A DNA stretch of 50,026 nucleotides, taken from an uncultured Anaerolineales bacterium (lineage in GTDB: Bacteria > Chloroflexota > Anaerolineae > UBA1429). Position numbers and translations under genes: made by a program. This document shows positions 8,833 to 50,026 of this stretch, in pieces (the stretch's first letter is position 1; each line of letters opens with the position of its first letter). The stretch lies in contig CAYQDH010000002.1 in assembly GCA_964416075.1 (NCBI GenBank), forward strand, positions 1 through 50,026, written 5' to 3'. The notes under the pieces were generated by a model that saw nothing but the letters and a program-made list of their open reading frames with translations, had not been told where the DNA came from and ran no database searches.

Positions 8833-8949
8833 GGCCACGTATACTCTGGACAGGCCTAGCCTCAAGGAGGACGTCCCGGCAACCACACCGCTCAAGCCAC
8901 GCTAAGGCCTTTGGGTGCGCGCCTGCCCTCGCACCCCATAAAATAGGTC

Positions 8950-9036
8950 AAACCTCCGACTCATCACGCTCCCTCGAGGACGAATGAGCGTTAGGTGCGG
9001 GGAGCAATCCCCACGCCCGCCGTTAGCAAAGGAGGT
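8950..9036 (+). promoter_or_regulatory. Candidate Moco/Tuco (molybdenum/tungsten cofactor) riboswitch aptamer
   Basis: 5' CCUCCGA (8953-8959) pairs with 3' AAAGGAGG (9028-9035) as P1. An internal helix is CUCAU (8960-8964) with AUGAG (8984-8988). A hairpin is GGUGCGGGG (8994-9002) with CCCCACGCC (9009-9017). CCUCCGA...AAAGGAG matches my recollection of the Moco-motif consensus. It lies directly upstream of a W/Mo-pterin enzyme gene. Confidence 0.5.
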
Positions 9037-9082
9037 GGCCTCGTTGTGCCGATTCTGGCGCACGAAGGTCACCTCCTTTTTT
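9029..9082 (+). terminator. Intrinsic terminator / expression platform of the AOR leader
   Basis: AAGGAGGUGGCC (9029-9040) pairs with GGUCACCUCCUU (9067-9078) and runs into a U6 tract (9077-9082), whose first two U form the base of the stem, then AUUU. The 5' arm reuses the GGAGG that closes the putative aptamer P1. Confidence 0.6.
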
Positions 9083-9118
9083 ATTTCGGAAATCGGTAGT
9101 CTGTACAGAGGAGGAAAC

Positions 9119-16742: not shown

Positions 16743-17414
16743 CATCATCCATTCGTGTCCTTATCGCTGACGACCACGCCATCCTGCGCAAGGGTATCCG
16801 CGCCCTGCTGAGCACGGAACCCGATATGCAGGTGGTGGGTGAGTCCTCCGACGGCTTGCAGACCGTGGCCCAGGCCCGCGCCTTGCGCCCCGACGTCATC
16901 CTCATGGACCTGGTGATGCCCAATATGGATGGCATCGAAGCGACGCGCCGGATCACCGCCGAGCAGCCCGGTGTGCGTATTCTGGTCCTGACCAGCTTTG
17001 CCGCCGACGACAAGGTCTTCCCAGCTATCAAGGCTGGGGCGTTGGGCTATATCCTCAAGGACTCGGGCCCGGCCGAGCTGGTGCAGGCCATTCACCAGGT
17101 TCGTCAGGGCCAGCCGTCGTTGGAGCCTGCTATCGCCCTCAAGATGCTGCACGAGCTCTCCCATCCCCCCCAGCAGCCCCCCACCTACTCCCGATCCGCT
17201 CAGCGCGCGCGAGCTGGAGGTGTTGCGCTTGCTGGCCCAGGGGAAAAGCAACCGCGAGATCGCCGACCAGTTGGTCATCACCGAGTTGACGGTGCGCACT
17301 CACGTGAGCAACGTCCTGGGCAAGCTGCACCTGGCCAGCCGTACCCAAGCCGCGCTCTATGCCCTCAAGGAGGGGCTGGCCTCTCTCGATGATATACCGA
17401 CGGACACGGGATAG
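16739..17414 (+). pseudogene. NarL/LuxR-family response regulator split by a +1 frame change (pseudogene or assembly error)
   Basis: The REC domain (MTSSIRVLIADDHAILRKG...DLVMPNMDG) is in the frame of ORF 16739..17392. The LuxR HTH (LSARELEVLRLLAQGKSNREIADQLVITELTVRTHVSNVLGKL) is in the frame of ORF 16998..17414. The switch must lie near the C7 (17165-17171) and C6 (17177-17182) runs. The start overlaps the kinase stop as ATGA. Confidence 0.75.
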
Positions 17415-36299: not shown

Positions 36300-36322
36300 C
36301 CTGTCACGCCTGAGGCTCCGTC

Positions 36323-36409
36323 ATGGCGAGAAACCCACGGGCTGCCGCCCCTGCGGTCTCAGATGACGTCCCAAGTACCGCAAGTTGCCTAACTTGCGGA
36401 TCTTGGTAA
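36323..36409 (+). CDS. Candidate mini-ORF 1 (28 aa) MARNPRAAAPAVSDDVPSTASCLTCGSW
   Basis: A complete ATG...TAA within repeat unit 1, with GAGG about 7 nt upstream. Whether it is coding is unproven, because the hairpin could explain the conservation instead. Confidence 0.3.
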   Translation: MARNPRAAAPAVSDDVPSTASCLTCGSW

Positions 36410-36414
36410 ACGTC

Positions 36415-36501
36415 ATGGCGAGAAACCCACGGGCTGCCGCCCCTGCGATCTCAAATGACGTCCCAAGTACCGCAAGTTGCCTAACTTGCGGATCTTGGTA
36501 A
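36415..36501 (+). CDS. Candidate mini-ORF 2 (28 aa) MARNPRAAAPAISNDVPSTASCLTCGSW
   Basis: A complete ATG...TAA within unit 2. The ATG is 5 nt after the previous TAA. It differs from copy 1 by V12I and D14N. Confidence 0.3.
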   Translation: MARNPRAAAPAISNDVPSTASCLTCGSW

Positions 36502-36506
36502 ACGTC

Positions 36507-36593
36507 ATGGCGAGAAACCCACGGGCTGCCGCCCCTGCGGTCTCAGATGACGTCCCTCGTACCGCAAGTTGCCTAACTTGCGGATCTTGGTAA
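36507..36593 (+). CDS. Candidate mini-ORF 3 (28 aa) MARNPRAAAPAVSDDVPRTASCLTCGSW
   Basis: A complete ATG...TAA within unit 3. It differs from copy 1 by S18R plus one synonymous change. Confidence 0.3.
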   Translation: MARNPRAAAPAVSDDVPRTASCLTCGSW

Positions 36594-36653
36594 ACGTCAT
36601 GAGCAGGAGCGGGTTTCGCGACGACGCATTCTCAGTTCACTGAGGAGTATACT

Positions 36654-37736
36654 ATGCCGGATATCCTACGCCAACATGCCGAACAGCAATTCGCCGAGGA
36701 GTTGGACCACCTGGCTCGTGCGGATACCCGGCCGCGCCCGCCCAATTGGCGCCTTTCTCCTTGGGCGGTGGCCACCTATGTTTTGGGCGGCGAGTTGCCG
36801 GACGGCTACCACATCACGCCCAAATACGTCGGCAGCCGGCGCCTGGTGGAGATCGCCATCGCCACGTTGGCTACGGACCGGGCGCTCCTCTTGTTTGGGG
36901 TGCCGGGCACCGCCAAGACCTGGCTCTCCGAGCACCTGGCCGCCGCCATCGCCGGCGATTCGACGCTCGTCGTCCAGGGCACGGCGGGCACCAGCGAGGA
37001 TGCCATCCGCTACGGTTGGAATTACGCCCGGCTGCTGACCGACGGCCCCTCCGAAGCTGCCCTGGTGCCTAGCCCCGTCATGCGCGCCATGCTGGAGGGC
37101 AAGATCGCCCGCGTCGAGGAGCTGACGCGCATCCCTTCGGACGTGCAAGATGCCCTCATCACCATCCTCTCTGAGAAAACCCTGCCGGTGCCTGAGCTGA
37201 AATCGGAGGCCCAGGCCATCAAGGGGTTCAATGTCATCGCCACGGCCAACAACCGCGACCGGGGGGTCAACGAGCTATCCAGCGCCCTCAAGCGTCGCTT
37301 TAACACGGTGGTGCTGCCGCTCCCCGCCACAGCCGAGGAGGAGACGAGCATCGTGTTGACCCGGGTGGAGGCCCTGGGCCAGGTGCTGGAGCTGCCCGCC
37401 GAAAAGCCGCCCCTGGAGGAGGTGCGGCGCGTGGTAACTATCTTCCGCGAGCTGCGCGAGGGCGTAACCTCCGACGGTAAGACCAAGCTCAAGTCGCCGA
37501 CCAGCACCCTGAGCACCGCCGAGGCCATCTCCGTGGTCAATAGCGGCCTGGCCATGGCTGGGCATTTTGGCGACGGGTATATGCGGGCCTCCGACATGGC
37601 CCCCGGCATCACGGGGGCCGTCATCAAGGACCCGGTGCAGGACCGTGTCGTATGGCTGGAATACCTGGAGACGGTGCTCAAGGAGCGCAACGGCTGGAAG
37701 GATCTGTACCGCGCCTGCCGGGAAGCTGTTATGTGA
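36654..37736 (+). CDS. MoxR-like AAA+ ATPase (AAA_5 type)
   Basis: Walker A LLFGVPGTAKTW. The Walker-B-region is KIARVEELTRIPSDVQDALITILSEK, with EE where DE is usual. Sensor-1 VIATANN and an RRF arginine are present. RBS GAGGAG is 6 nt upstream. Confidence 0.85.
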   Translation: MPDILRQHAEQQFAEELDHLARADTRPRPPNWRLSPWAVATYVLGGELPDGYHITPKYVGSRRLVEIAIATLATDRALLLFGVPGTAKTWLSEHLAAAIAGDSTLVVQGTAGTSEDAIRYGWNYARLLTDGPSEAALVPSPVMRAMLEGKIARVEELTRIPSDVQDALITILSEKTLPVPELKSEAQAIKGFNVIATANNRDRGVNELSSALKRRFNTVVLPLPATAEEETSIVLTRVEALGQVLELPAEKPPLEEVRRVVTIFRELREGVTSDGKTKLKSPTSTLSTAEAISVVNSGLAMAGHFGDGYMRASDMAPGITGAVIKDPVQDRVVWLEYLETVLKERNGWKDLYRACREAVM

Positions 37737-37744
37737 GGTCCTAG

Positions 37745-40102
37745 ATGACTGTCCACGTCTTTGGCATCCGCCACCATGGTCCAGGTTCGGCACGTACCCT
37801 GCTGGCTGCGCTGGAGAGCCTGCGCCCCGATGCCATCCTCGTCGAGGGGCCACCTGAGGGGGAGGAGCTATTGGGCGCGGTGCTCCATCCCGACATGCAA
37901 CCCCCTGTAGCCCTGCTGGTCTATGTCCCTGATGAGCCGCGCCGAGCGGGCTTTTACCCCTATGCCCTGTTTTCGCCCGAGTGGCAAGCCATCCGCTATG
38001 GCCTGGAGCACGGCGTCCCGGTGCGGCTGATCGATCTGCCGCAGAAGCATTGGCTGGCCCTGCGCCAGGAAGAGGCGCAGGCTCCACCGGCGCCAAGCGC
38101 CTCGGCACCCAGTGCCGCGCCCGATGATGCCCCGACGCCGGCGCCCCCACCGCAGCCCGTGGACCCCTTGGATGCGTTGGCCCTGGCCGCGGGCTATGAG
38201 GATGGCGAGAACTGGTGGGAGCATCTCATCGAGGAGCGTCCCACCGGTGGGGAGAACCGGGCCGCCGCAGCCCTGGATGTCTTTGCGGCGGTCCAGGAGA
38301 TGATGGGTGCCCTGCGTTCCAGTGCGCCACTGGATGGGCAGAGCCCCGAGGCCGTGCAATCACTAATGAGGGACCCCTTACAGCCACTGCGCGAGGCGGC
38401 GATGCGCCGGTCGATCCGTATCGCCGAGCAGGCCGGGTACCAGCGGATCGCCGTGGTGTGCGGGGCCTGGCACGTGCCGGCCCTCGTCTCTACAGCGCCT
38501 GGAGACGACGACCTGTTGGCAGGCTTGCCCGAGGTCCCGGTCAAGCTCACCTGGGTGGCCTGGAGTTACGAGCACCTGTCGCGTTTCAGCGGTTACGGTG
38601 CGGGGGCCATCTCGCCCGCCTGGTACGAGCACTTGTGGCGCACGGCGCCATCGGGCCATGTCGCCGTGCTCTGGCTGACGCGCGTTGCCCAGTTGTTGCG
38701 CCAAGAGGACCTGGACGCCTCGGCGGCCCAGGTCATCGATGCCGCCCGCTTGGCCGATGCCCTGGCCGGCGTGCGCGGGCGCTCCCGCCCGGGTTTGGCG
38801 GAGCTGCGCGACGCGTGCCTGGCCGTCTTTTGCTTTGGCAATCCCGCGCCCATGCGCCTGATCTCACACCAGTTGATCATCGGCGACCGCCTGGGCCAGG
38901 TGCCGGCGGGGCTGCCGATGGTGCCGCTCTACCAGGACCTCGTGGCGACCGAGGGCCGGCTGCGTTTCCCGCGCCAGATGAGCGCCAAGCAACACGATCT
39001 CGACCTTCGCCAGCCGAATGATCTCGCACGCAGCCGGCTGCTCCACCGCCTGCTCGCCCTGGATGTGCCATGGGGCAAGCTTGAGGCCGCCAGGCATGGT
39101 GTCAAAGGTACATTTCACGAAGTGTGGACCCTGCAATGGCAGCCGGAATTCACCATCCGGGTGATCGAGCGGGCCATCTGGGGCAACACCATAGCCCAGG
39201 CCGCCAACACGTATCTCGTGCACCAGGGTGAGACGGCCCCGGAATTGGCCGCCCTCATGGAATTGCTGGACTGTGCGCTCCTGGCTGACCTGCCTGCGGC
39301 GGCGGCTCATCTCATCGCCCTGTTCCAGGCTCGTTCGGCCCTATCGGGCGACGTCGGGCGCTTGATGGACGCCTTTCCCCCTTTGGCCCGGGCGTTACGC
39401 TATGGCACCGTGCGGCAGAGTGCCGCTCTGGTGGGGGGAGGAGAGATGGCTGCCCTTGGCCCCAGCGCCATCGCCCCCATCCTCAACGGCTTGGGGGCGC
39501 GCATCTGCATTGGGCTCCCCATAGCCTGTGCCTCTTTGGACGATGACGCCGCGCAGCAGATGTTGCAGCGCATCGAGGCGGTGCAGAGCGGCCTAGCGGT
39601 GGTAGACCTGCCGGAGCTAACGGCAAGCTGGCAGGCCACATGCCGACAGTTGGTCGACCAAGGAGGCTTGCATGGGCTGCTCGCCGGCCGCTGCTGCCGG
39701 TTGTTGCTCGATCAGCGCCTTCTGAGCGCGGAGGAGGTTGCCCGCCGCTTGAGCCTGGCCTTGTCGCGCGGCAACGACCCGGCCCAGGGCGCAGCCTGGT
39801 TGGAGGGCCTGCTCCGTGGCAGCGGCCTGCTGCTCATCCACCAGGGTGGGCTGTGGAGCGTCCTGGATCAGTGGCTCGCGGGATTGGCCCCCGAGGCTTT
39901 TGTCGCCGTGCTGCCCTTGCTGCGCCGCACCTTTTCCGCCTTTCCGGCTCCCGAGCGCCGCCAGATGGGCGAGCGCGTGCGCCGAGGGCCGGCGCACATG
40001 GTGCTCGGCGACCGGGATACGAATATCGACACGCACCGTGCAGATGCCACTCTGCCGCTGCTGGCCCGCTTGCTGGGCCTACAAGAGGATGGCTCACCAT
40101 GA
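37745..40102 (+). CDS. Large DUF5682-like protein (785 aa) with TraB/TIKI/ChaN-like N-terminal pattern
   Basis: N-terminus VHVFGIRHHGPGSARTLLAALESLRPDAILVEGPPE, then a Pro/Ala-rich linker (QAPPAPSASAPSAAPDDAPTPAPPPQPVDP), then a long helical region. The stop overlaps the next start (ATGA). The DUF5682 label is from memory. Confidence 0.65.
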   Translation: MTVHVFGIRHHGPGSARTLLAALESLRPDAILVEGPPEGEELLGAVLHPDMQPPVALLVYVPDEPRRAGFYPYALFSPEWQAIRYGLEHGVPVRLIDLPQKHWLALRQEEAQAPPAPSASAPSAAPDDAPTPAPPPQPVDPLDALALAAGYEDGENWWEHLIEERPTGGENRAAAALDVFAAVQEMMGALRSSAPLDGQSPEAVQSLMRDPLQPLREAAMRRSIRIAEQAGYQRIAVVCGAWHVPALVSTAPGDDDLLAGLPEVPVKLTWVAWSYEHLSRFSGYGAGAISPAWYEHLWRTAPSGHVAVLWLTRVAQLLRQEDLDASAAQVIDAARLADALAGVRGRSRPGLAELRDACLAVFCFGNPAPMRLISHQLIIGDRLGQVPAGLPMVPLYQDLVATEGRLRFPRQMSAKQHDLDLRQPNDLARSRLLHRLLALDVPWGKLEAARHGVKGTFHEVWTLQWQPEFTIRVIERAIWGNTIAQAANTYLVHQGETAPELAALMELLDCALLADLPAAAAHLIALFQARSALSGDVGRLMDAFPPLARALRYGTVRQSAALVGGGEMAALGPSAIAPILNGLGARICIGLPIACASLDDDAAQQMLQRIEAVQSGLAVVDLPELTASWQATCRQLVDQGGLHGLLAGRCCRLLLDQRLLSAEEVARRLSLALSRGNDPAQGAAWLEGLLRGSGLLLIHQGGLWSVLDQWLAGLAPEAFVAVLPLLRRTFSAFPAPERRQMGERVRRGPAHMVLGDRDTNIDTHRADATLPLLARLLGLQEDGSP

Positions 40103-41268
40103 GCGATACGTTGCAGCCCAGCACCGTCCCTGGGGAGGACGAGCGTCTGCGTCGCTGGCGGCTTGTCCTGGGTGGCGGCGATGCCGACAGCATCGCTCTC
40201 CCCCTCGATGATCTGGATCTGGGGATGGATCGCACGCTGAGCGCCCTCTATGACTCGGAGCGCAGGGGAGGGCTCGGCGCATCGGCCCCACACGTGGCGC
40301 GCTGGCTGGGGGATATCCGCACCTATTTTCCCTCCTCCGTCGTCCGCATCTTGCAGCGCGATGCCATGGAGCGACTAGGGCTTCGGCAGATGCTCGCCCA
40401 GCCCGAGCTGCTGGCCTCCATCGAGCCGGACATCCACCTGGTGGCCTCGTTGGTGATGCTCAAGGACGTCCTGCCGGCCAGAACCAGGGACACGGCCCGC
40501 CAGGTGATTCGCCAGGTGGTGGAAGAGGTCGAGCGGCGGCTGGCCCAGCCGCTGCGCCAGGCCGTGCAGTCGAGCCTGGACCGCGCGGCCCGCACCCGCC
40601 GCCCGCGCCACCACGAGATCGACTGGCAGCGCACCATCCGCGCCAACCTAAAGCACTATCAGCGCCGCTACCGCACCATCATCCCCGTTCAACGCATAGG
40701 CTTTGCCCGCAAAGGGACGGGCCTGCGAGACATTATCGTCTGCATCGATCAAAGTGGCTCGATGGCTGCTTCAGTGGTCTATGCTGGTATCTTGAGTTCT
40801 GTGCTGGCCTCGCTGCGGGCCATCCATACGCGCGTCGTCGCTTTCGATACCTCAGTGGTGGACCTCAGCGATCTGCTTTCCGATCCCGTCGAGCTGCTCT
40901 TTGGCACCCAGCTGGGTGGCGGAACCGATATCGACCAGGCCCTGGCCTATTGCCAATCCCTGATCCGGAGCCCCCACGATACCATCCTCGTACTGCTCAG
41001 CGACCTGTACGAGGGGGGCGACCAGGGCGCCATGGTGGGCCGCATCAGAACGATGGTCGATATGGGTGTGCAGGTCATAGCCTTGTTGGCGCTGAACGAC
41101 CGGGGTGCGCCCTCCTACAACCATCCCCTGGCGAGCGCCCTGTCGAGCATGGGTGTCCCGGCCTTTGGGTGTACGCCCGACCAATTCCCCGACTTGATCG
41201 CGGCGGCTATCCAGCGCCAGGACCTCACGGTCTGGGCCACAAGCAGCGGCATCGCACCCGCAAGGTGA
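40099..41268 (+). CDS. von Willebrand factor A domain protein (CoxE-like), complete MIDAS
   Basis: From MSDTLQPST. MIDAS residues are DQSGSM (DxSxS), GGGTDI and LLSDLYEGG. The track ORF (39640..) is an artefactual 5' extension over the preceding gene. Confidence 0.85.
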   Translation: MSDTLQPSTVPGEDERLRRWRLVLGGGDADSIALPLDDLDLGMDRTLSALYDSERRGGLGASAPHVARWLGDIRTYFPSSVVRILQRDAMERLGLRQMLAQPELLASIEPDIHLVASLVMLKDVLPARTRDTARQVIRQVVEEVERRLAQPLRQAVQSSLDRAARTRRPRHHEIDWQRTIRANLKHYQRRYRTIIPVQRIGFARKGTGLRDIIVCIDQSGSMAASVVYAGILSSVLASLRAIHTRVVAFDTSVVDLSDLLSDPVELLFGTQLGGGTDIDQALAYCQSLIRSPHDTILVLLSDLYEGGDQGAMVGRIRTMVDMGVQVIALLALNDRGAPSYNHPLASALSSMGVPAFGCTPDQFPDLIAAAIQRQDLTVWATSSGIAPAR

Positions 41269-42754: not shown

Positions 42755-43306
42755 TCATCGTTTCTCGGCGAGGTAGGCAAAGAAGCCTGCCCGCCTCAAA
42801 GCTTGCAGCGTCAGCGCCCCCAGCACCCCGCCGAGAGCGCCGAAAACGATGTACCCGATCAACGCTTTGAGCAGCCCCAGCGCCACAAACCCCACCGGCG
42901 CGCCCGTGATGCTCGCCATACCCCATTTGACCAAGAACTTGGCCATGTGGCCCAAGGTCGCCGCCAGCCCCGCCACGACCAGGCTCTCCGGACGACCCAG
43001 CAGCCATAGGGCCAGGTCAGTGCCCACGCCTACCGCTGTATAGGACAGCAGTGTGTTTAGCGCGCCGAAATCGCCCAATCCCATAAAGGCCGCCATGATG
43101 CCGGAGCTTAGGCCCACCAGGCTGGCCGCGCCGCGCTTGGGGACGATCCCCGCGCCCACGATGATGATCGCCATCCAAAAGATGCCGGAATGACCCGACA
43201 GCTGCAGCGGCAGCCGCAACGTGATCTTGGCTACCACGACCAGCGCGGCGAACAGCGCTAGCAAGACAAGCTCAAAGGTGGAGAAATATCGCTCCTTCAT
43301 GGCCAT
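42755..43306 (-). CDS. ECF-transporter substrate-specific (S) component-like membrane protein
   Basis: About 183 aa from MAMKERYFSTFELVLLALFAALVV, with 5-6 TM segments. It is last in the gene string with EcfT and the fused EcfA. The start shares one nt with the upstream stop. Confidence 0.6.
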   Translation of the reverse strand: MAMKERYFSTFELVLLALFAALVVVAKITLRLPLQLSGHSGIFWMAIIIVGAGIVPKRGAASLVGLSSGIMAAFMGLGDFGALNTLLSYTAVGVGTDLALWLLGRPESLVVAGLAATLGHMAKFLVKWGMASITGAPVGFVALGLLKALIGYIVFGALGGVLGALTLQALRRAGFFAYLAEKR

Positions 43307-43809
43307 CACTCCGATTCTGGTGGGGTGTTGATTTCGATAGCATCCACGTCCTGCACCCACTCGTCGCGGATGTCCAACTGGGGCAAGAGCGAGACCAGCT
43401 TGAGCGTGCCGCGCCCCGATAGATCGAACAACACCATGTTCGCAGGGTCATCGACCTCGGCCCAGGTCAGGTCCGCAATCTTGCTGCTGCTGCCGCTGGA
43501 TACATGCACCCGCGTCGTGGGCCCGAGGGCATTGCGCTCGATGTGCCGCAAGATCACATCTCGCAGCATCCAGCCCTGCTGCGTCTTGCCCTCCTCCGCG
43601 TCCACAAACTGGGCTTCTTCCAGGTTGGCTAGATCGTCGGGCGTAAAGCCCCCTACGAGGCGACCATCCATGCGGATAGGGATGCTCCCCGGCGCCAGCT
43701 CCGGCTCCGGGCCGAGCCGCGAACGCTGCCAGGCATCTACGCCGAGGACCAGGGCCACCAGCGCCACGAGGATGCCTAGCCCGATGAGAATCCGTGTTCC
43801 TTGTGTCAT
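43306..43809 (-). CDS. Membrane-anchored extracytoplasmic protein, unknown function
   Basis: N-terminal anchor ILIGLGILVALVALVLGV, then a soluble domain of about 130 aa. It lies between the EcfT and S-component genes. Confidence 0.5.
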   Translation of the reverse strand: MTQGTRILIGLGILVALVALVLGVDAWQRSRLGPEPELAPGSIPIRMDGRLVGGFTPDDLANLEEAQFVDAEEGKTQQGWMLRDVILRHIERNALGPTTRVHVSSGSSSKIADLTWAEVDDPANMVLFDLSGRGTLKLVSLLPQLDIRDEWVQDVDAIEINTPPESE

Positions 43810-43830
43810 ATCTCTACCTGTGCCGTGTTC

Positions 43831-44517
43831 TTAGCGCCAGATTAACAGCGCCACCATAGAGGCCGCCGATCCGGCCAGCAGCCAGCTGTCGAACGATGTC
43901 CAGATGAGGCGGCGGTAGGGCCGCCGATGCGGCGAGTCAAAGCCTCGGGTATAGGCGGCCTCCGTCAAGGCCCAGGCGCGCTTGGTCGTAAGGGTGATAG
44001 CGGGCACTGCCAGGGCCACCATATCGCGCAAGCGGCCCCCCAGGTTCCGCCAGCCAGAGGATGGCGCCCAGGCCCCGCGCGCCTGCTGCGCTTCCAGGAT
44101 GGCGCGCCACTCCTCGCCTAATAACCCGAGGCTCTGAAAGGCTAAACCCAAGCTAAAGGCGTAGCGGTACGGAAGACGCATCCATTCCAGCGCCAGGCGT
44201 AACTCGCCCGGCGTGGTGCTGGCGAAGAACAGGGAGAACGCCCCGGCCAGCAGCACCAGCCGCAGGGTGATCACGATGGCCAGATCCAGGCTGACCACCA
44301 CCCAATCCACCACAAAAAGGACCAGCAAGATCCACTTGAGCCTCCAGGCCTGTCGTGCCGCTTCCGGCAACAGCCGTGCCCAGAGCAACAAGCCGATATA
44401 TAGTGCCATGAAGACAGCCAGTCGCTCTAGCGGTAGCATCACCGCCAGGGATGCACATAGGCTCAGCGCCAACTTGGTGCGCGGGTCGGCGCGGCGCAGA
44501 GGCGAGTCCTCCACCAT
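43831..44517 (-). CDS. ecfT: ECF transporter transmembrane (T) component (EcfT/CbiQ family)
   Basis: From MVEDSPLRRADPRTKLALSL, with the conserved ARG motif (EAQQARGAW). The track ORF (to 44901) runs through an intrinsic terminator and so is over-extended. GAGGG lies 8 nt before ATG 44517. Confidence 0.75.
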   Translation of the reverse strand: MVEDSPLRRADPRTKLALSLCASLAVMLPLERLAVFMALYIGLLLWARLLPEAARQAWRLKWILLVLFVVDWVVVSLDLAIVITLRLVLLAGAFSLFFASTTPGELRLALEWMRLPYRYAFSLGLAFQSLGLLGEEWRAILEAQQARGAWAPSSGWRNLGGRLRDMVALAVPAITLTTKRAWALTEAAYTRGFDSPHRRPYRRLIWTSFDSWLLAGSAASMVALLIWR

Positions 44518-44748
44518 CGCCAGCCCTCGCACGCCCAGGCCAGTTCGTCTTCGCTGGGGCTTCGCACTCACCGACTTGCCTCGTTTCAGGATTGTGATCT
44601 GCTCCTTGCCCAGCGAAAACACCGACCGAGCGCGTCGCTTCGGCCGCTCGCTATGCATGGCTTGGCACAAAGGCGCTACGACAGGGTCAGCGCTGGCCTC
44701 TCCGCAATAGCGTGAGGGCAACGATGGCCACTGGCCGAGTACTGAAGC

Positions 44749-44788
44749 AAAAAAACGGCGTTTCCCCATCCATACGCGGGGAAACGCC
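44749..44788 (-). terminator. Strong intrinsic terminator inside the Mop-EcfT spacer
   Basis: Minus-strand RNA reads GGCGUUUCCCC, loop GCGUAUGGAU, GGGGAAACGCC, G, UUUUUUU: an 11-bp perfect stem and U7. Confidence 0.8.
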
Positions 44789-44975
44789 GACTGATTCGCC
44801 GCCGTTACCGTTCTCCTTTCCAAGGATGGGGGGCGTGACTGTTTCCGGCCACACCTTCTTGACGGTCCACAAGACCGCCAGCGATCACAGGCCCTAGCCA
44901 TCGCTGGACATCGTCACACCAACGAGCGCGTTAGGCTATGTGATTCGGAGAACAAGATATCCTGTTGTGAACGAA
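44789..44975 (-). promoter_or_regulatory. Riboswitch-like leader (multi-helix element plus antiterminator) upstream of ecfT
   Basis: On the minus strand GGUGUGAC (44920-44913) pairs with GUCACGCC (44839-44832). That helix encloses the CCAGCGAU/AUCGCUGG hairpin (44907-44900 with 44885-44878) and GACGAUGUCC/GGACCGUC. CCCCAUCC (44831-44824) is complementary to GGAUGGGG (44771-44764) in the terminator. I recognise no known riboswitch class. Confidence 0.45.
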
Positions 44976-44979
44976 AGCC

Positions 44980-45007
44980 ATTATAGTTTGATCGCGCACA
45001 AACGCAA
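44980..45007 (-). promoter_or_regulatory. Possible internal promoter for the ecfT leader
   Basis: On the minus strand, TTGCGT (45007-45002), a 16-nt spacer, then TATAAT (44985-44980). It is followed by the imperfect palindrome AACAGGATATCTTGTT (44966-44951). Confidence 0.35.
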
Positions 45008-45039
45008 GGACATCAAGGCGGGTTTTGGCCCAGAGCTAG

Positions 45040-45249
45040 CTAATCGACAGCAACCATGACACTGGACGCCTTGATCACGGCATAAGCTTCCTTGCCCACC
45101 TTCAGCCCGAGGCTCTCGGCGGATGTCTTGGTGATGATAGACACCACCTCGAGGCCCCCTGGTAGCTCAATAACCACCTCAGAATTCACCGCGCCGGGGG
45201 TTATCTTCTTCACCACACCCTTTAAAACGTTGCGAGCGCTGAGTCTCAT
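45040..45249 (-). CDS. mop: Molbindin (Mop/TOBE-domain molybdate/tungstate-binding protein)
   Basis: 69 aa: MRLSARNVLKGVVKKITPGAVNSEVVIELPGGLEVVSIITKTSAESLGLKVGKEAYAVIKASSVMVAVD, a textbook Mop/TOBE pattern. RBS GGGAGG. Confidence 0.85.
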   Translation of the reverse strand: MRLSARNVLKGVVKKITPGAVNSEVVIELPGGLEVVSIITKTSAESLGLKVGKEAYAVIKASSVMVAVD

Positions 45250-45280
45250 AATACGGACCTCCCTATCATATACGATTGTA

Positions 45281-45298
45281 GCTCTTCAGCTGAAGAGC
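45281..45298. promoter_or_regulatory. Perfect 18-bp palindrome between the mop promoter and its RBS (operator or 5'-UTR hairpin)
   Basis: GCTCTTCAGCTGAAGAGC is exactly self-complementary. It lies downstream of the -10 box and upstream of GGGAGG. Confidence 0.5.
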
Positions 45299-45310
45299 CT
45301 TACATATCAT

Positions 45311-45339
45311 ATTATACTACTATTACGATCAAATTTCAA
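45311..45339 (-). promoter_or_regulatory. Near-consensus sigma70 promoter of mop
   Basis: On the minus strand, TTGAAA (45339-45334), a 17-nt spacer, then TATAAT (45316-45311), in an AT-rich island. Confidence 0.6.
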
Positions 45340-45375
45340 TACTTTCAAAGGAGCTTCGATTCCTCGCCCCGCTTT

Positions 45376-46833
45376 TCATAACGCCGGACTATCAGCCGCA
45401 GGTGCCGCCGGCCGACTGCCTTCGCGCAGCCACGGTGGCACCAGCAGCCCGGCCTCGCACCAGGCCGCCGCGTGGCCCAATACCTCCGCCACAGGCCCAT
45501 CATCCAACACTCGTCCATCGCCGAGCAGGATCAAGCGATCCACGTACCTGGCCACCCAATCCAGATCGTGTGTGGCGGCGACGACGACATAGCCCGCCTG
45601 CGCCAGGGCGCGCGCTGCGCCACCCACGATGGCGCGGTGGCCGTCATCCTGTCCTAGCGTCGGCTCGTCGAGCAGCAGGCCGTGCCTGGGCTGGCGCATG
45701 AGCAGGATGGCCAGGGCCAGTCGCTTCTTTTCTCCCTCGCTCAGCAGTAGCGGCGGCGTTTGCTCGTATGGGGCCAGGCCCAGCGCCTGCAATGCCCAGT
45801 CATACATGGCATCGTCGGGGTGCGCCAGCCGGTAGCGCATCTCCATCTCCACAGTCGGGTTGAAAAGCTGCCAATCGGGGTTCTGGAACATCAGCCCCAG
45901 GTCGGGTCGCGTCCCATCCGCCGCCGCGATCTGCCCCGTATAGGGGTGCAGCCCCGCACAAGCCCGCAGCAGCGTCGTCTTCCCTACGCCATTGCGCCCC
46001 ACCAGTGCCACTACCTCGCCGCCCGGTAGCTGCAGATCGAGGCCCTCGAAGAGCCTGCGCTCGCCATGCCCCAGTTCCAGCCCCCTAATGGCTATCTCCA
46101 CCTGCCGTTGGTAGAGAGGAGGAAGGACTTGAGCCTGCTCCGTGCCTGCCTCGAGCGACGGGTTTTCGGCCCGGTGGCCGCCGGCCATGGCATAGCGGTG
46201 GATGGCCCCACCGTGAAAGTATGCGTCGCGGTGCTCGCAGACAACCACCGTGCCGCCCTGTGCTCTCAAGTCGGCCAGGTCGGCGACGAGCTGGGTTGCG
46301 GCGGCGGTATCCAGCATGGAGAGTGGCTCGTCCAGGACCAGGGCGCCGGTCTGCCGGGCCAGGGTAGCGGCCAGCATCAGCCGCTGCTGTTCCCCACCGC
46401 TGAGGGTCTGGGGGGAACGCTCGCCCAAGCCTGTCAGCCCAAAGCGCTGCAGACTGGATGTGATCCTTGATTCGATCTCTTTCGCGGGCAGCCCGAGGTT
46501 CTCCAGGCCGAAGGCGACTTCTTCCTCCACGGTGGATGCGACGGACTGCACAGCGGGATTCTGGAACATCAGCCCCACCCGCTCGGCGATCTGCCACATC
46601 TCGGCCTGGTCGGTGCGCAGGTCGCCGACCCACACCTGGCCGCGCATCTCTCCTCGGTAGAGGTGGGGAATGAGGCCCGCCAGGCAGCGTGCCAGAGTGC
46701 TCTTGCCGCACCCCGAAGGCCCGGTAATGACCCATGTCTCGCCGGGAGCAGCCAATAGGTCGATATCCTGCAGGCCCAGGCCATGCTGTGGATAGCGGTA
46801 GCTCAGGCCCTCGGCGCGCAGTGAAATAGACAT
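45376..46833 (-). CDS. ecfA: Fused double ABC ATPase of an ECF-type transporter (EcfA-EcfA')
   Basis: Two ABC cassettes. Walker A motifs are GPSGCGKS and GRNGVGKT, Q-loops are MFQNP twice, and signatures are LSGGEQQR and LSEGEKKR. The start MSISLRAEGL is at 46833. Confidence 0.85.
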   Translation of the reverse strand: MSISLRAEGLSYRYPQHGLGLQDIDLLAAPGETWVITGPSGCGKSTLARCLAGLIPHLYRGEMRGQVWVGDLRTDQAEMWQIAERVGLMFQNPAVQSVASTVEEEVAFGLENLGLPAKEIESRITSSLQRFGLTGLGERSPQTLSGGEQQRLMLAATLARQTGALVLDEPLSMLDTAAATQLVADLADLRAQGGTVVVCEHRDAYFHGGAIHRYAMAGGHRAENPSLEAGTEQAQVLPPLYQRQVEIAIRGLELGHGERRLFEGLDLQLPGGEVVALVGRNGVGKTTLLRACAGLHPYTGQIAAADGTRPDLGLMFQNPDWQLFNPTVEMEMRYRLAHPDDAMYDWALQALGLAPYEQTPPLLLSEGEKKRLALAILLMRQPRHGLLLDEPTLGQDDGHRAIVGGAARALAQAGYVVVAATHDLDWVARYVDRLILLGDGRVLDDGPVAEVLGHAAAWCEAGLLVPPWLREGSRPAAPAADSPAL

Positions 46834-46840
46834 AGCCGCG

Positions 46841-47527
46841 TCAATCCAGCTTGAGCGGCACCCAATTGGGATCACCGCGCTCCACGTACAGCACGGGACG
46901 TCCATCGCGCAGGGCGGGGCGCAGTTTCCCGCCCGTGTCGATCAGCCCTTCCACGATGGGGTCCCCTGCCATATTCAGCACCGCCACGATTCCCGACGCC
47001 AATATTGCCTCGACGGACTGGATGCCCGCGAGTTCGCGGATCGTGCCTACCAAAATGAAACGCCCGTCTTGGCCTGATGCGCCCAGTCCCACGGCCGATA
47101 GGGCGCCGATCACGCCATCCTCCGTGCCTCCCAGGCCGCGCAGAAACAGGCCATACGCTGCGGCCAGCTGTCGCGCCTCACCCTGGCCCACCAACTCGGT
47201 CTGTGCGCGGTGCCCAAAGCGAGTGATGGCCGCTGGAACCTGGCGCGCGATGCATACGCCGGGATCGCTGCCCTCGGGACTTTCATTCTTCACATAATCT
47301 GAGACGAAATCTCCTAACTCGTTCAGGTCGGCCTCGCTCTGCAAGTGAATGCAGGCCGAGCTGTTGCGCTTCGTCATCGGCACGCGGGGATCGACGAGAA
47401 GCTGGTGGCGCGAGATGCCGAACAGGTCGCCGAATCGCCCCAGGTGATCGACCATCTGCCGCGCCAGCTTGCCCGTGCCGCGCTCCCAGTCAACGATATC
47501 CGTATCATCCAACCCGATGTAGATCAT
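46841..47527 (-). CDS. Stand-alone protein resembling the TiaS N-terminal kinase (TCKD/DUF1743-like) domain
   Basis: MIYIGLDDTDIVDWERGTGKLA..., VDPRVPMTKRNSSACIHL, SDPGVCIA and GVIGALSAVGLG parallel my recollection of archaeal TiaS blocks (VGIDDTDS..., NPTIPYKTRGNGA, NPG, GLIGALAAVG). The CDS itself is solid but the family call is tentative. Confidence 0.5.
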   Translation of the reverse strand: MIYIGLDDTDIVDWERGTGKLARQMVDHLGRFGDLFGISRHQLLVDPRVPMTKRNSSACIHLQSEADLNELGDFVSDYVKNESPEGSDPGVCIARQVPAAITRFGHRAQTELVGQGEARQLAAAYGLFLRGLGGTEDGVIGALSAVGLGASGQDGRFILVGTIRELAGIQSVEAILASGIVAVLNMAGDPIVEGLIDTGGKLRPALRDGRPVLYVERGDPNWVPLKLD

Positions 47528-47612
47528 GCTTTCCCCTCGTTATGGCGGGACGTGCAGCGCCCGACACTCGTAGTGAAGTGGTCGAGGCATTCTGCCTCGT
47601 CCCGCATTGACA

Positions 47613-48971
47613 CTAGACCTTGGCGTGTAGCGCCTGTGACTCGCGCAAACGTTCGATCGCTTGTCCCAGCTCATCATCGGACACGGGGCAACCACGCAGC
47701 CACAGGATATCGACTCCGGGCGCCATACCCAATTGCGGAGCGCGCTCCAACACAGCATGGGCATAGGACGCGCTGCAGTCCCCTAGGATGAGCTCCTGGT
47801 GCCAGGCATTGCGCTCCACGTCAGCCCCCACGAACACCTGATCTCCCGCCGCGCTCACCCGCAGATAAGAGATATCGGCCGGATCGTGCCCGGCCAGCGC
47901 CTGGCGGCCCAGCTCCAGGCAGCGCTGACAGACAGCCCCCGACCCTTGGAGCGCCTCGATGATCGCGGGCACAGGGGCCGGGCAGCCGGCGATCATCGTG
48001 CCCAGGTGGCTGCAATCCTTGGCGCAGTCGCCGATGGCGATGACCGTGCCCTCGACCTGGGGCGCGTCCCCCTCGGAACCGACGATGATATGGAGCGGCT
48101 TGAGCAGCTTCTGGCGCGCAAAACGGTGCAGGGCCGTGTTGGCAAACGCCCTGCACCCGCTGCAGGCGTTGCGGTCGTGAACCTGCAGGCCAGGCAAGGC
48201 CTGTTGCAGCTCTTCGGCAGCCCCGATAAAGCGCCGCTTGGCACAGTCCGCGACCGTCTCGCCCACCACCTCGATGCGCTGCGGGTCGCCGATCCCCAGG
48301 CCCTCCTCGATGGCCCATTGCAGGTTGCGGGTGCGCCAGGTCATCATCATCAGCTCTCTCGCCACCACATCCACCGCCACGGGATCATCCCCGGCCAACA
48401 TCACCTGGGCGTGCACCGGATGCTGAAAGCCAACGCCCCCGGCGATCCCTTCGGCCCCCACCAGGCCGTCGACGATGATCAGGTCGGGGCTGCGCACGCG
48501 GTTCAGGTCCACCAGGAACTCTTCCAGCAGGTATTGGCTGTGCACCTCGGAGCGTTTCCATTGCGGTGTGCAGCCAAAGCTGTTCTTCAGTGTCACGGTA
48601 TGGTCGGCGTGGGGGCCGGCATCCAGGTTGTAGAGCTCGACCCCGCTCCGAGCCGCCATCTCCCGCCACCCTCCAGTAGGAAAGCCGCTATCTATGGCGA
48701 GGCCGAACCCCGGCGTTCCTTCGGCGACGATGATCCGCGCCGGAGAGCAGCGGCGCACTTGCTCGATCAGCGCTTCTACCAGCTCGACATGCGTCGTGCC
48801 CCCGGAACTGGCAGGACCGCTGCTGACGATATTCGGCTTGATGAGCACCGTTTGCCCGGGCCGTACGTAACGCTCGATTCCTCCCAGTTCGGCCAAGCAC
48901 TTGTCCAATACTTGCGCAGCCTGGCCGAGCTCGATCCACTTGTGCAACGCAACACTTGTGGTTTCCTTCAT
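47613..48971 (-). CDS. DUF362 domain protein with Cys-rich C-terminal extension
   Basis: From MKETTSVALHKW. VRPGQTVLIKPNIV and TLKNSFGC are typical of DUF362. C-terminal cysteines are CSGCRAF, GDCAKDC, AGCP and CQRC. GACGAGG lies upstream of ATG 48971. Confidence 0.7.
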   Translation of the reverse strand: MKETTSVALHKWIELGQAAQVLDKCLAELGGIERYVRPGQTVLIKPNIVSSGPASSGGTTHVELVEALIEQVRRCSPARIIVAEGTPGFGLAIDSGFPTGGWREMAARSGVELYNLDAGPHADHTVTLKNSFGCTPQWKRSEVHSQYLLEEFLVDLNRVRSPDLIIVDGLVGAEGIAGGVGFQHPVHAQVMLAGDDPVAVDVVARELMMMTWRTRNLQWAIEEGLGIGDPQRIEVVGETVADCAKRRFIGAAEELQQALPGLQVHDRNACSGCRAFANTALHRFARQKLLKPLHIIVGSEGDAPQVEGTVIAIGDCAKDCSHLGTMIAGCPAPVPAIIEALQGSGAVCQRCLELGRQALAGHDPADISYLRVSAAGDQVFVGADVERNAWHQELILGDCSASYAHAVLERAPQLGMAPGVDILWLRGCPVSDDELGQAIERLRESQALHAKV

Positions 48972-49025
48972 AATGACCTCGTCAATTTGTCTTTTCCTCT
49001 TGATCGGCGGTGCCATGCGTCGACC

Positions 49026-50026
49026 CTATCCCAACCGTCCGATGCGCGCCAGCCCGTCGGCCACATCACCCATCCCCAGCGCCTCCAGGCTCGCGCGGGT
49101 CGGGTACCCGTTGCTGGGACTCCAGCCGCGCATCTCGTAATAGCGGTCCAGCATCGGACTAAAGCGCTCCAGGTCGAGCACCACGCCATCGCTAAGGGCG
49201 GGTTCGGTCATCGTCTGGGCCGCGGACCAATCCACGGTGCGGTTGCGGTCGTGGTTGCGCACATCGACAGCCCGTAGTTGGTTAAAGATGCGCGAGCCTG
49301 CCTCCGTGAGCGTGGCTAAATCGGTCTCCTGGCCCGTGCAGGCCGAATAGAGCTTGGCCATCATCTCCGTATCCGCCGCGCGATCCTCGCTCTCCATGCT
49401 AAAGATGCGTGGCTGTTCATAGTCGCACAGCGTCAGCGATTCTAATAGCATCCCCCAGTTGTGATGCAGGATGGCCGGGATCACCTTCGTATCCGGCTTG
49501 TCGTATGTGTACGCGGGGTTATACACATCCGGCTCCCCATACACTCGCTCGCAGATGGCCCGCGCCTGTTCGGCGGTCACCGGCCCGCGGTTCGGACCGT
49601 GCTCTGGCAGGTAACTGAGCAGATGGGTCGTATAGGCGTGGGTTGAATCGCTGGCCGGATCGCGCGTATCCACGCAGAACTGCAGCACGGGCACCAGCCA
49701 AAAAGGAAAGTAGGGCCGTCCGCCCGTGCCCCAGTGGGCATTCCAATGGTTTGTCTGCCCAAAGCGCCGGGGGTAGATCCGGTCGAGGAGTGGCGCTCCC
49801 GCACCGCCAAAGAGGCGCTCCGCGGCATAGCAAGCGCCATCGGCCAGCGCGTCGCCCAACTCCCCCTCTCTCAGCGCTATCGTGCGCACCATGTTGATCG
49901 TGAACTCCGGCGACTGTCGCGGCACATCCTCCAGATAGTGGATCTCCTTATCCGGCACGGGGATGGGGATGCCGTCGATCGTATCGATCAGGCCATGTTG
50001 CTTGCACATCATCAGCCAGGGGATGA
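49026..50026 (-). CDS. Second aldehyde:ferredoxin oxidoreductase family gene (C-terminal two thirds; N-terminus beyond window)
   Basis: The frame is open to the window end (…IPWLMMCKQHGL…). The AOR domain 2/3 pattern runs to ...YYEMRGWSPSNGYPTRASLEALG, mirroring the end of the first AOR (YYESMGWDPKTGLPTREKLASLG). Confidence 0.85.
   Translation of the reverse strand, partial: IPWLMMCKQHGLIDTIDGIPIPVPDKEIHYLEDVPRQSPEFTINMVRTIALREGELGDALADGACYAAERLFGGAGAPLLDRIYPRRFGQTNHWNAHWGTGGRPYFPFWLVPVLQFCVDTRDPASDSTHAYTTHLLSYLPEHGPNRGPVTAEQARAICERVYGEPDVYNPAYTYDKPDTKVIPAILHHNWGMLLESLTLCDYEQPRIFSMESEDRAADTEMMAKLYSACTGQETDLATLTEAGSRIFNQLRAVDVRNHDRNRTVDWSAAQTMTEPALSDGVVLDLERFSPMLDRYYEMRGWSPSNGYPTRASLEALGMGDVADGLARIGRLG

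Follow-up and report, generated by a model that had tools for sequence, protein, structure and literature searches.

An uncharacterised ECF-type importer conserved in Anaerolineae and associated with Moco/Tuco riboswitches: a candidate uptake system for molybdopterin-related pterins

The locus described here raises the question of what substrate is carried by an ECF-type importer encoded among genes of molybdenum and tungsten metabolism, and which of the neighbouring genes belong to it. The window, i.e., the whole stretch of 50,026 nucleotides that was analysed, derives from an uncultured Anaerolineales bacterium. An earlier note had described in it a minus-strand gene string running from a second AOR to an S component, and every gene that it named was located there (Table 1).

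Table 1. Positions of the genes and regulatory elements of the locus within the window.
Feature	Position	Strand	Basis or remark
AOR-family enzyme, second copy, C-terminal part, runs off the window	49026..50026+	-	PF01314, E 4.8e-29
DUF362 protein with Cys-rich C-terminal part	47613..49016	-	PF04015, 93 bits
TCKD-like protein, 228 aa: TiaS kinase domain and small C-terminal beta domain (predicted)	46841..47527	-	AF2 model, Foldseek
Fused EcfAA' double ATPase, 485 aa from ATG 46833	45376..46833	-	TIGR04520, two ABC_tran domains
Sigma-70-like promoter upstream of mop	45311..45339	-	TTGAAA-17-TATAAT, 11/12 positions, consensus match only
Mop molbindin, 69 aa, single TOBE/Mop domain	45040..45249	-	TIGR00638; PF03459
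Moco/Tuco riboswitch aptamer, P3 stem present	44797..44962	-	RF01055
Intrinsic terminator, riboswitch expression platform	44746..44789	-	13-bp stem with 9 G-C pairs, then seven U
EcfT, transmembrane coupling component	43831..44571	-	PF02361 (CbiQ); start GTG 44571 or ATG 44517
P167, 167 aa: N-terminal membrane anchor and extracytoplasmic domain (predicted)	43306..43809	-	AF2 model, Foldseek
S component, 181 aa, hydrophobic integral membrane protein	42755..43300	-	weak PF09819

The gene arrangement of the window recurs in 80 species-level Anaerolineae genome loci and is thus not due to chance. Co-occurrence was counted among the 64 loci with enough upstream DNA (63 for the TCKD-like gene): P167 was present in 61 of them, EcfT in 60 and EcfAA' in 58, while the TCKD-like gene was found, upstream of EcfAA', in 56 of 63 and is also present in the distant locus L086. 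The S gene directly followed the P167 gene in 77 of the 80 loci. The conserved module consists of the TCKD-like protein, the fused EcfAA', EcfT, P167 and the S component, and all five parts were kept, in a different gene order, in a low-GC relative whose S component is 40% identical. The earlier note had anchored its interpretation in the embedding of mop and AOR and had treated the TCKD-like and 167-aa proteins as incidental; however, the latter two proved to be the conserved partners. AOR matches occurred in just two of the 80 loci (27–31% identity), away from the module, and DUF362 had no homologue among any of the 80. Both genes adjoin the ECF module in this window only and are therefore outside the conserved unit, and Mop recurred near the module in only three of the 80 loci (L048, L062, and L073).

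The T component and the ATPases of the transporter were recognised from their sequences. EcfT matched PF02361 with 59.8 bits (cut-off 25) and carries the two xRG coupling motifs of CbiQ-family T components, QQARGAW and AYTRGF. In both ATPase domains of EcfAA', the Walker A, Walker B and signature motifs typical of EcfA are intact (Walker A and signature being GPSGCGKST/LSGGEQQR and GRNGVGKTT/LSEGEKKR); the TIGR04520 (ECF_ATPase_1) score was 259 bits, below the equivalog cut-off of 315, and that of TIGR01166 (cbiO) was 220.5 bits against 211.8. The putative S component is constantly found near EcfT, and its constant partnership with an extracytoplasmic binding-type protein, P167, departs from the ECF rule. 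The earlier note had named grouping of the S component with a family of known substrate as evidence that would count against its proposal; no such grouping was found, the sole link being a weak one to YkoE. PF09819 matched with 23.2 bits and so fell short of its gathering score (25.2), and the only PDB match of the family profile was YkoE (5edl, E 2.5e-4). Assignment to the YkoE family was rejected on this sub-threshold score and on the context of a Moco riboswitch and Mo/W genes, and assignment to the CbiM/NikM metal type was rejected since Pfam and NCBIfam scans gave no CbiM-family match. With 1286 homologues (222 representatives at 50% clustering), the S component appears to form a new subfamily that is distantly related to YkoE.

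The two conserved partners were characterised mainly by structure prediction. P167 has a single hydrophobic segment (residues 7–25) and no Pfam or NCBIfam match. In Foldseek searches, its AF2 model (pLDDT 86) matched best the PruR proteins 7kom (E 1.4e-5), 7kp2, and 7rkb in the PDB, with TM values of 0.51–0.65; the Moco domains of sulfite oxidase and YedY ranked next. One of the PruR structures was solved with neopterin bound. In addition, an hhalign comparison of P167 with the PF00174-type domains of related loci gave an E value of 7.7e-5 (probability 62%). The outer domain of P167 is thus predicted to adopt the PruR/sulfite-oxidase (SUOX) fold. Cysteine is absent from P167, and the Cys that serves as molybdenum ligand is missing from PruR as well (PMC11194511); each would be a small exported SUOX-fold domain lacking this ligand. 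However, PruR, a soluble protein of Proteobacteria, controls c-di-GMP and signals to DcpA (PMC11194511), whereas P167 is membrane-anchored, occurs in Chloroflexota and is encoded within an ECF operon, and no sequence similarity between the two could be detected.

For the TCKD-like protein, the best Foldseek match of the AF2 model (pLDDT 90) was TiaS, the archaeal tRNA(Ile2) agmatidine synthetase (3amt_A, E 1.6e-8, 154 columns of the 417-aa target). Its profile also matched TiaS sequences (E 1.8e-9) in an alignment that pairs DDTD and the Thr18 position, and the predicted fold, the DDxD motif and Thr18 of the N-terminal TCKD kinase domain of TiaS are all present. The DDTD, G-T18-G, RHQ and GSD motifs are invariant, DDTD and the Thr across 32 homologues. 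Because the TiaS catalytic motifs are kept, including the Thr18 position, the protein is probably an active enzyme. It is not a full TiaS: only residues 1–148 align, and NF040849 scored 36.7 bits against a cut-off of 600. TiaS comprises about 420 aa rather than 228, and beyond approximately residue 150 its C-terminal tRNA-binding part has no counterpart in the TCKD-like protein, which moreover is bacterial and tied to an ECF transporter.

The regulatory elements of the locus link the module to the Mo/W cofactors. The promoter proposed upstream of mop was found as a consensus match. Of the proposed "leader/terminator," the terminator was recovered and is also present in the minimum-free-energy fold, while the leader turned out to be more than had been claimed, namely a Moco riboswitch aptamer directly upstream of ecfT-P167-S. 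It matched RF01055 over its full length with 50.2 bits (gathering score 36, E 3.9e-9; Rfam) and scored 79 bits with a covariance model built for this analysis; its MFE fold shows P1–P5 (z-score -3.7), and P1, P2, P4, P5 and the conserved core of the family are present. The terminator geometry suggests an OFF switch, in which plentiful finished cofactor would bind the riboswitch, the terminator would form, and ecfT, P167 and S would be turned off. In other genomes, RF01055 lies ahead of the whole TCKD-ECF operon (L054, L059, L067, and L077), of a lipoprotein-TCKD-ECF operon (L047 and L052) or of tupBCA-ecfT-P167-S (L002). According to the rule that P3 marks the Moco type (PMC2408646), the riboswitches fall into two kinds, the module standing behind P3-containing ones in three genomes and behind P3-lacking ones in six (L054, L059, L067, L077, L066, and L002, the last shared with tup).

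Comparative genomics showed that other genomes share the linkage to Mo/W genes. Further genes of this kind were detected in 46 of the 53 loci of at least 12 kb, including TupABC-like transporters with their TupA-like binding proteins, MoSto-like storage proteins, moaA/moaC/moeA, MogA/MoaB, Mop, and small lipoproteins with a sulfite-oxidase fold. Homologues of MoSto (E 1e-73 to 2ogx_B) adjoin the module in 20 loci. A TupABC-like tungstate importer lies within 10 kb in 34 of the 80 loci, and in L002 it shares the riboswitch-controlled operon. SUOX-type domains related to P167 are fused, in one or two copies, to the N- or C-terminus of a TupA-like tungstate-binding protein. The Mop of the window has the single Mop/TOBE domain of about 70 aa that defines molbindins (TIGR00638, 81.5 bits, cut-off 55; PF03459, 68 bits). 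Together with the riboswitch control, these neighbours back the earlier proposal of a dedicated, undescribed ECF module of W/Mo-pterin metabolism, and a text search of open-access papers found no ECF transporter tied to a Moco riboswitch. The module is an uncharacterised ECF-type importer that is conserved in 80 or more species of Anaerolineae, in several of which Moco/Tuco riboswitches control it; it is best explained as a group I (dedicated) ECF importer within the Mo/W-cofactor supply regulon.

As for the substrate, the earlier note had left a choice between an oxyanion and a pterin or cofactor precursor, and these two remain the leading candidates. We tentatively favour import of a molybdopterin-related pterin that is caught by P167 and phosphorylated in the cytoplasm. 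P167 would be exported unfolded by the Sec route and then stay membrane-anchored; its PruR/SUOX-fold domain would catch the pterin outside the cell (Moco/Tuco itself, molybdopterin, cPMP, or a dephosphorylated breakdown product) and pass it to the S component, and EcfT with EcfAA' would drive its import with ATP. The TCKD-like enzyme would phosphorylate or otherwise activate the pterin, which would thereby be trapped and returned to the cofactor pathway. Vitamin kinases act likewise on other ECF substrates. A bolder and slightly less probable form of the proposal is that the module might be the first bacterial uptake and salvage system for Mo/W cofactor or pterin precursors, with a membrane-anchored PruR-like receptor and a TiaS-like kinase; the pterins captured would be of the molybdopterin type and released by other cells in anoxic habitats, and the kinase would phosphorylate them anew or activate them in the cytoplasm.

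Pterin import is suggested by the riboswitch control, the co-occurrence of the five parts and the Mo/W neighbours, by the order of the P167 matches (PruR pterin binders, then Moco-binding domains), by the TiaS catalytic motifs retained in the TCKD-like protein, and by YkoE, the nearest known relative of the S component, which carries an organic heterocycle. Control by both P3-containing and P3-lacking riboswitches agrees with a substrate that both the Mo and the W cofactor share, and the Tup-type importers in 34 loci would make a second oxyanion pump partly redundant. However, free Moco is very labile, and this counts against the proposal, as does the presence of moaA/moaC/moeA in many loci, since these organisms can make the pterin themselves. 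The riboswitch was detected in just about 15 of the 83 sources searched, and the PruR pocket is too short to hold Moco (PMC11194511). In Eubacterium limosum, iron transporters are also under Tuco riboswitches (PMC11725836); thus, riboswitch control does not fix the substrate.

The main rival, somewhat less probable, is an ECF-type importer of molybdate and/or tungstate. P167 would then be a CbiN/NikK-like helper that catches the oxyanion and loads S, the TCKD-like enzyme would handle the anion inside the cell, e.g., by activating it with ATP or passing it on to Mop, MoSto, or MoeA, and uptake would be repressed through the riboswitch when cofactor is plentiful. The riboswitch and the Mo/W neighbours count for it as they do for pterin import, and the Mop within the module in the window (and near it in three loci), the adjoining MoSto-like proteins and the TupA fusions point towards oxyanions, the fusions also speaking against a pterin. 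To our knowledge, extra extracytoplasmic ECF subunits are otherwise found only in metal systems (CbiN, NikK/NikL), and CbiMNQO, a metal ECF importer under a B12 riboswitch, is an exact precedent for such an importer under a cofactor riboswitch; both points favour an oxyanion over a pterin. Like CbiMNQO and NikMNQO, the module encodes its own T and A components beside S, together with an extra small membrane-anchored subunit that has an extracytoplasmic part, and with CbiMNQO it shares control by a finished-cofactor riboswitch (B12 and Moco, respectively). However, its S component is unrelated to CbiM/NikM, having only a weak PF09819/YkoE-like signal, and its sole known relative carries thiamine/HMP. 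The accessory subunit is a folded, predicted PruR/SUOX-type domain rather than CbiN, a fold known from pterin binders and not from any known oxyanion-binding protein. The ATPases are fused, and the conserved fifth member, the TiaS-kinase-like protein, has no obvious role with an oxyanion. ModABC, TupABC and WtpABC belong to the same Moco/Tuco regulon and neighbourhood and possibly share the task of metal supply, but they are ABC importers of type I, which combine a BPD_transp_1 permease with a binding protein that is either soluble or anchored to lipid, whereas the module is of the ECF type (type III), and a TupABC-like importer already stands in many of the same operons. The P3 stem of the window riboswitch, set against the P3-lacking riboswitches at Tup operons elsewhere, would fit a division in which the ECF module supplies Mo and Tup supplies W; however, with the module behind P3-lacking riboswitches in six genomes, this split is not clean.

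It is still less probable that the module acts on behalf of the small extracellular SUOX-fold proteins that leave the cell through Sec, or that it transports some other cargo required by W/Mo enzymes. In one version, a pterin would be exported or loaded onto P167, OxMo lipoproteins and the TupA fusions. In about 30 loci, the gene that directly precedes TCKD does encode a SUOX-fold lipoprotein, and these lipoproteins have Sec-type lipobox signals without a twin-arginine motif and therefore could not carry the cofactor through the Sec route. However, all characterised ECF transporters are, as far as we know, importers, and a terminator-type switch that is off at abundant cofactor fits uptake rather than export. 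In the other version, iron or sulfur compounds would be imported, for which the Tuco-controlled iron transporters of E. limosum (PMC11725836) offer a parallel, but genes related to iron or sulfur did not recur around the module in the related loci.

An ordinary YkoEDC-type thiamine/HMP importer that lies near Mo/W genes by coincidence is very improbable: the weak PF09819 and YkoE profile matches, the common plan of a dedicated ECF module under a cofactor riboswitch and the JGI label "thiamin/hydroxymethylpyrimidine transport permease" of some homologues are outweighed by a marginal YkoE similarity (about 24 bits, below the Pfam gathering score), by the Mo/W neighbourhood, by P167 and TCKD, which YkoEDC lacks, and by a Moco instead of a TPP riboswitch, Rfam gathering-score scans having found RF01055 alone in the window and L001–L003 and, besides RF01055, just an L10 leader in seven further loci.

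The module may thus be the first bacterial uptake system for molybdopterin-type pterins or a new kind of molybdate/tungstate importer. The only prokaryotic routes of Mo/W supply known to us are the oxyanion importers ModABC, TupABC, and WtpABC. With an ECF system in the Moco/Tuco regulon, these would be joined either by a fourth metal importer that works by a different mechanism or by a route for cofactor/pterin salvage, the first of its kind; a 2026 review describes the passage of pterins across bacterial membranes as unknown (PMC13259868). If salvage of pterins proved true, Moco would become an exchangeable "vitamin" in microbial communities, and Moco auxotrophy and cross-feeding would have to be reread in anaerobic communities such as those of digesters and sediments, where Anaerolineae are abundant. 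Two kinds of accessory subunit would also be new to ECF systems, namely an extracytoplasmic domain of ligand-binding type and a kinase dedicated to the transporter. The five genes of the module are all small and contiguous, which makes the system directly testable. In addition, bacterial TiaS-like proteins, now misnamed "TiaS" or "ABC transporter substrate-binding protein," would gain a function.

The gene string that the earlier note had read on the minus strand was confirmed, and the case is stronger than described there, since its leader proved to be a molybdenum cofactor (Moco) riboswitch. The element called a "leader/terminator" consists of an RF01055 aptamer and a terminator hairpin, and the separate promoter proposed in front of mop is near-consensus (TTGAAA-17-TATAAT). 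Unconstrained minimum-free-energy folding of the aptamer reproduced all of P1-P5, the P3 stem among them (z-score -3.7). On inspection of the sequences, EcfT contained both Arg-Gly coupling motifs, and the Walker A and signature motifs were intact in each ATPase half of EcfAA'. Judged by the T- and A-component features tested, the module is predicted to work like a group I ECF importer.

Features of the minus-strand gene string (window 42755-50026; first eleven rows, in order of transcription), of the rest of the window, and of numbered loci (L) of related genomes
Feature	Source	Position	Strand	Evidence or remark
AOR-family enzyme, C-terminal 332 codons	window		-	PF01314, E 4.8e-29
DUF362 protein, 467 aa	window		-	PF04015, 93 bits
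TCKD-like protein, 228 aa	window		-	weak matches to TiaS TCKD domain, TiaS equivalog model and methanogenesis marker 11
EcfAA', fused double ATPase, ECF type	window		-	TIGR04520, 259 bits; TIGR01166, 220.5 bits vs cut-off 211.8
Mop molbindin, 69 aa	window		-	TIGR00638, 81.5 bits vs 55
Moco aptamer	window	44797-44962	-	Rfam RF01055, full length, 50.2 bits vs gathering score 36, E 3.9e-9
Terminator hairpin, 3' of aptamer	window	44789-44756	-	13 bp, G+C-rich, then seven U
Apparently non-coding stretch, terminator to ecfT start	window	44572-44745	-	about 180-240 nt, long for a leader; no feature found
EcfT, CbiQ family	window		-	PF02361, 59.8 bits
P167, 167 aa	window		-	no family match
S component, 181 aa, hydrophobic	window		-	PF09819, sub-threshold
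P3-lacking Moco-like aptamer	window	8942-9087	+	own model, 37 bits, E 7e-7; no Rfam match at E<=1
First AOR gene	window	9120-10972	+	true start ATG 9120
Sensor histidine kinase, 1383 aa, and 217-aa ORF	window	12591-17392	+	kinase with several PAS and GAF domains, HisKA_3
Five-gene cluster	window	33286-41268	+
PF00174 fusions	L002; L017; L025	7218-8585; 3723-5039; 4738-6450
Stand-alone PF00174 protein	L001	6018-6485
MoSto homologue	L075	5767-6594		and 19 other loci
DUF134 protein and 83-93-aa protein	L034; L084	5792-6430; 9132-9828	-	and 17-20 other loci
Aptamer found by Rfam, missed by own model	L047	7419-7549
Putative module remnants	L066; L083	9400-10534; 7946-10594
TCKD-like gene, then EcfAA'-like gene	L084	10001-11833		5.2-Mb contig, GCA_041300525.1

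The S component had 1286 homologues in a large protein collection; the top 120 were 77-90% identical to it, and those named were from Chloroflexota. Clustering at 50% left 222 representatives, and thus the S component forms a small, distinct family. A survey of one genome per species, queried with an alignment of close S relatives and hence biased towards Anaerolineae, returned 80 loci, nearly all of them from Anaerolineae, onto which the window proteins and molybdenum/tungsten (Mo/W) reference proteins were mapped. The gene order TCKD-like, EcfAA', EcfT, P167, S was essentially invariant. Where at least 3.6 kb of upstream DNA was available, P167 was encoded in 61 of 64 loci, EcfT in 60 and EcfAA' in 58; for the TCKD-like gene the figure was 56 of 63, counted over loci with 4.4 kb or more. 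A single metagenome scan, for which a distant S homologue served as query, yielded one example, a 4.4-kb contig of a low-GC organism that encodes all five parts; its S component is 40% identical to that of the window, the outer domain of P167 is duplicated, and the gene order differs, with both strands in use. The near-invariant order, the co-occurrence and the distant relative with all five parts strongly support a joint function of the five proteins, as a dedicated ECF module to which two extra subunits constantly belong. AOR and DUF362, which the earlier note had included in the cluster, were rejected as members: DUF362 occurred in none of the 80 related loci and AOR in two, weakly matching and not adjacent to the module, so that both are neighbours in this window only.

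In L066, a riboswitch precedes the first ~120 codons of a TCKD-like gene, which continue directly into an almost complete S gene; the genes for the ATPase, T and P167 are missing. In L083, a ModB/ModC-like pair is followed by an S gene whose N-terminus is replaced. In each of the two loci, moaA-moaC-moeA come next. Both arrangements resemble remnants of a decayed module. L084 has a TCKD-like gene and, behind it, an EcfAA'-like gene shortened to 368 aa; EcfT, P167 and S are lacking downstream. With 4807 homologues, the TCKD-like family exceeds the S family in size, and its members may therefore also work outside this module.

Riboswitches were sought across the loci with Rfam and with our own covariance model; the latter failed to detect at least one Rfam-supported site, and the counts are thus lower bounds. 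RF01055-type aptamers lie directly 5' of the TCKD-ECF operon in L054, L059, L067, L077 and the degraded locus L066; 5' of lipoprotein-TCKD-ECF in L047 and L052; 5' of tupBCA-ecfT-P167-S in L002; and 5' of ecfT-P167-S in the window. At other loci they also precede moaA, tupB and a MoSto-like gene. The P3 stem is present in the window, L047 and L052 and absent from most other aptamers, including those of the Tup operons seen here. Regulski et al. (PMC2408646) linked P3-containing RNAs to Moco and P3-lacking ones to the tungsten cofactor (Tuco), a rule also applied in PMC11725836; by this rule, the ECF module sits behind either riboswitch type, depending on the species. Moco/Tuco riboswitches are predicted to control the module in at least 10 genomes, and we infer the direction of this regulation from geometry alone. 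A riboswitch was seen in about 15 of the 83 sources surveyed, and other regulators probably exist. Genes for a DUF134 (sigma-70 region-4-like) protein and for an 83-93-aa protein without a family match often lie in divergent orientation to the TCKD-like gene; where a genome has no riboswitch, these proteins could act as its regulator. Upstream of the first AOR gene of the window lies a further Moco-like aptamer, detected by our own model only, whose P1 3' arm GGAGG (9031-9035) also opens a terminator hairpin as its 5' arm (GGAGGTG...CACCTCC, then a T run). With this geometry, the tungsten enzyme gene would be on when the cofactor is bound.

The module has a Mo/W neighbourhood in most genomes: among the loci of at least 12 kb, 46 of 53 carried at least one further Mo/W gene within 10 kb. 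TupA/B/C-like transporters were encoded in about 34 loci; the best NCBIfam match of the TupA-like binding protein, a PF12849 member, was tung_bind_TupA (216 bits, under the equivalog cut-off). The genes moaA (14 loci), moaC (11) and moeA (11) were found near the module, as were MogA/MoaB and MOSC genes, and Mop was encoded in three loci besides the window. A 275-aa protein similar to the beta subunit of the Azotobacter molybdenum storage protein (2ogx_B, E 1e-73) occurred in 20 loci; in Anaerolineae, these MoSto homologues adjoin the module, mostly as one gene instead of an alpha/beta pair. Directly 5' of the TCKD-like gene, about 30 loci encode small lipoproteins of the Sec type with an Oxidored_molyb domain (PF00174, 34 bits vs a Pfam threshold of 24), and the same domain is fused, in one or two copies, N- or C-terminally, to the TupA-like binding protein. 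The small Sec-exported domains of this sulfite-oxidase (SUOX) type contain an invariant CxxC pair.

The sequence of P167 shows a single hydrophobic anchor at the N-terminus and lacks a twin-arginine motif; its domain should therefore reach the outside unfolded, without a cofactor. The best structural matches of its AlphaFold2 model (pLDDT 86) were PruR of Vibrio and Klebsiella, namely 7kom (E 1.4e-5), then 7kp2 and 7rkb, the last determined with neopterin bound; next came Moco-binding domains, those of sulfite oxidase, nitrate reductase and YedY. PruR, a periplasmic binder of small pterins, is a truncated sulfite-oxidase fold in which the Mo-ligand cysteine is missing (PMC11194511). P167 contains no cysteine at all. 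A first hhalign comparison of P167 with the SUOX lipoproteins, based on small alignments, was not significant; larger alignments matched it to the PF00174-type domains (E 7.7e-5, probability 62%, 101 columns). Neither the P167 profile nor the SUOX-lipoprotein profile matched any PDB entry.

The model of the TCKD-like protein (pLDDT 90) resembled the TiaS kinase domain (3amt_A, E 1.6e-8, 154 columns); the DDTD motif and Thr18 of TiaS both have aligned counterparts that are invariant in 32 homologues, and the protein is probably an active ATP-using enzyme. It was rejected as a true TiaS, with 36.7 bits against a cut-off of 600 and no counterpart of TiaS beyond about residue 150. Bacteria use TilS instead of TiaS for the corresponding tRNA modification. 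In public records the protein is misnamed, as "ABC transporter substrate-binding protein" or as "TiaS".

The earlier note had regarded grouping of the S component with a family of known, unrelated substrate as an argument against its uptake proposal. No such grouping emerged: the sole match of the S family profile among solved structures was YkoE, a thiamine/HMP S component (E 2.5e-4), and the S component constitutes a new subfamily. By the structural models, the domain exposed outside the cell folds like a pterin binder, and the TCKD-like protein inside like a kinase. Our preferred, still tentative explanation is that the module imports a molybdopterin-related pterin; it is favored by the fold of P167, the presence of a kinase, the frequently co-encoded Tup importer and the predicted control by both riboswitch types. 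P167 would take up the pterin and hand it to S, EcfT and EcfAA' would drive the import, the TCKD-like enzyme would phosphorylate or activate the imported pterin, and the finished cofactor would stop synthesis of the membrane parts via the terminator. P167 bends the rule that ECF transporters have no binding protein.

The main rival, an ECF-type molybdate/tungstate importer, is a less likely but serious candidate: Mop and MoSto adjoin the module, an SUOX-type domain like that of P167 is fused to the tungstate-binding protein, and CbiMNQO with CbiN, a metal ECF importer under a B12 riboswitch, offers a precedent. Loading of exported SUOX-fold proteins, or transport of another cargo, is improbable; in Eubacterium limosum, iron transporters are under Tuco riboswitches (PMC11725836). 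A plain thiamine/HMP importer was rejected as very implausible given the RF01055 riboswitch, the marginal YkoE match and the Mo/W neighbourhood.

The regulon and the S family of this ECF transporter are new, as are its two accessory components; should it carry a Moco-type pterin, the biological consequence would be categorically new. Text searches of open-access papers found none in which ECF transporters and the Moco riboswitch both figure, and combining ECF transporter with molybdate and tungstate returned general ABC-transporter reviews and one unrelated study only. ECF transporters were absent from the passages retrieved for selected terms from the first description of the Moco riboswitch (Regulski 2008, PMC2408646) and from the 2013 riboswitch-regulon survey (PMC3766115).

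Elsewhere in the window, the five-gene cluster encodes an unknown 463-aa protein, DUF5691, a MoxR-like AAA_5 ATPase, DUF5682 (785 aa) and a VWA CoxE-like protein; it is an ATPase/VWA system unrelated to the ECF module. The very large histidine kinase gene lies just downstream of the first AOR gene and an AI-2E family transporter gene and is followed on its 3' side by a 217-aa ORF of unknown family.
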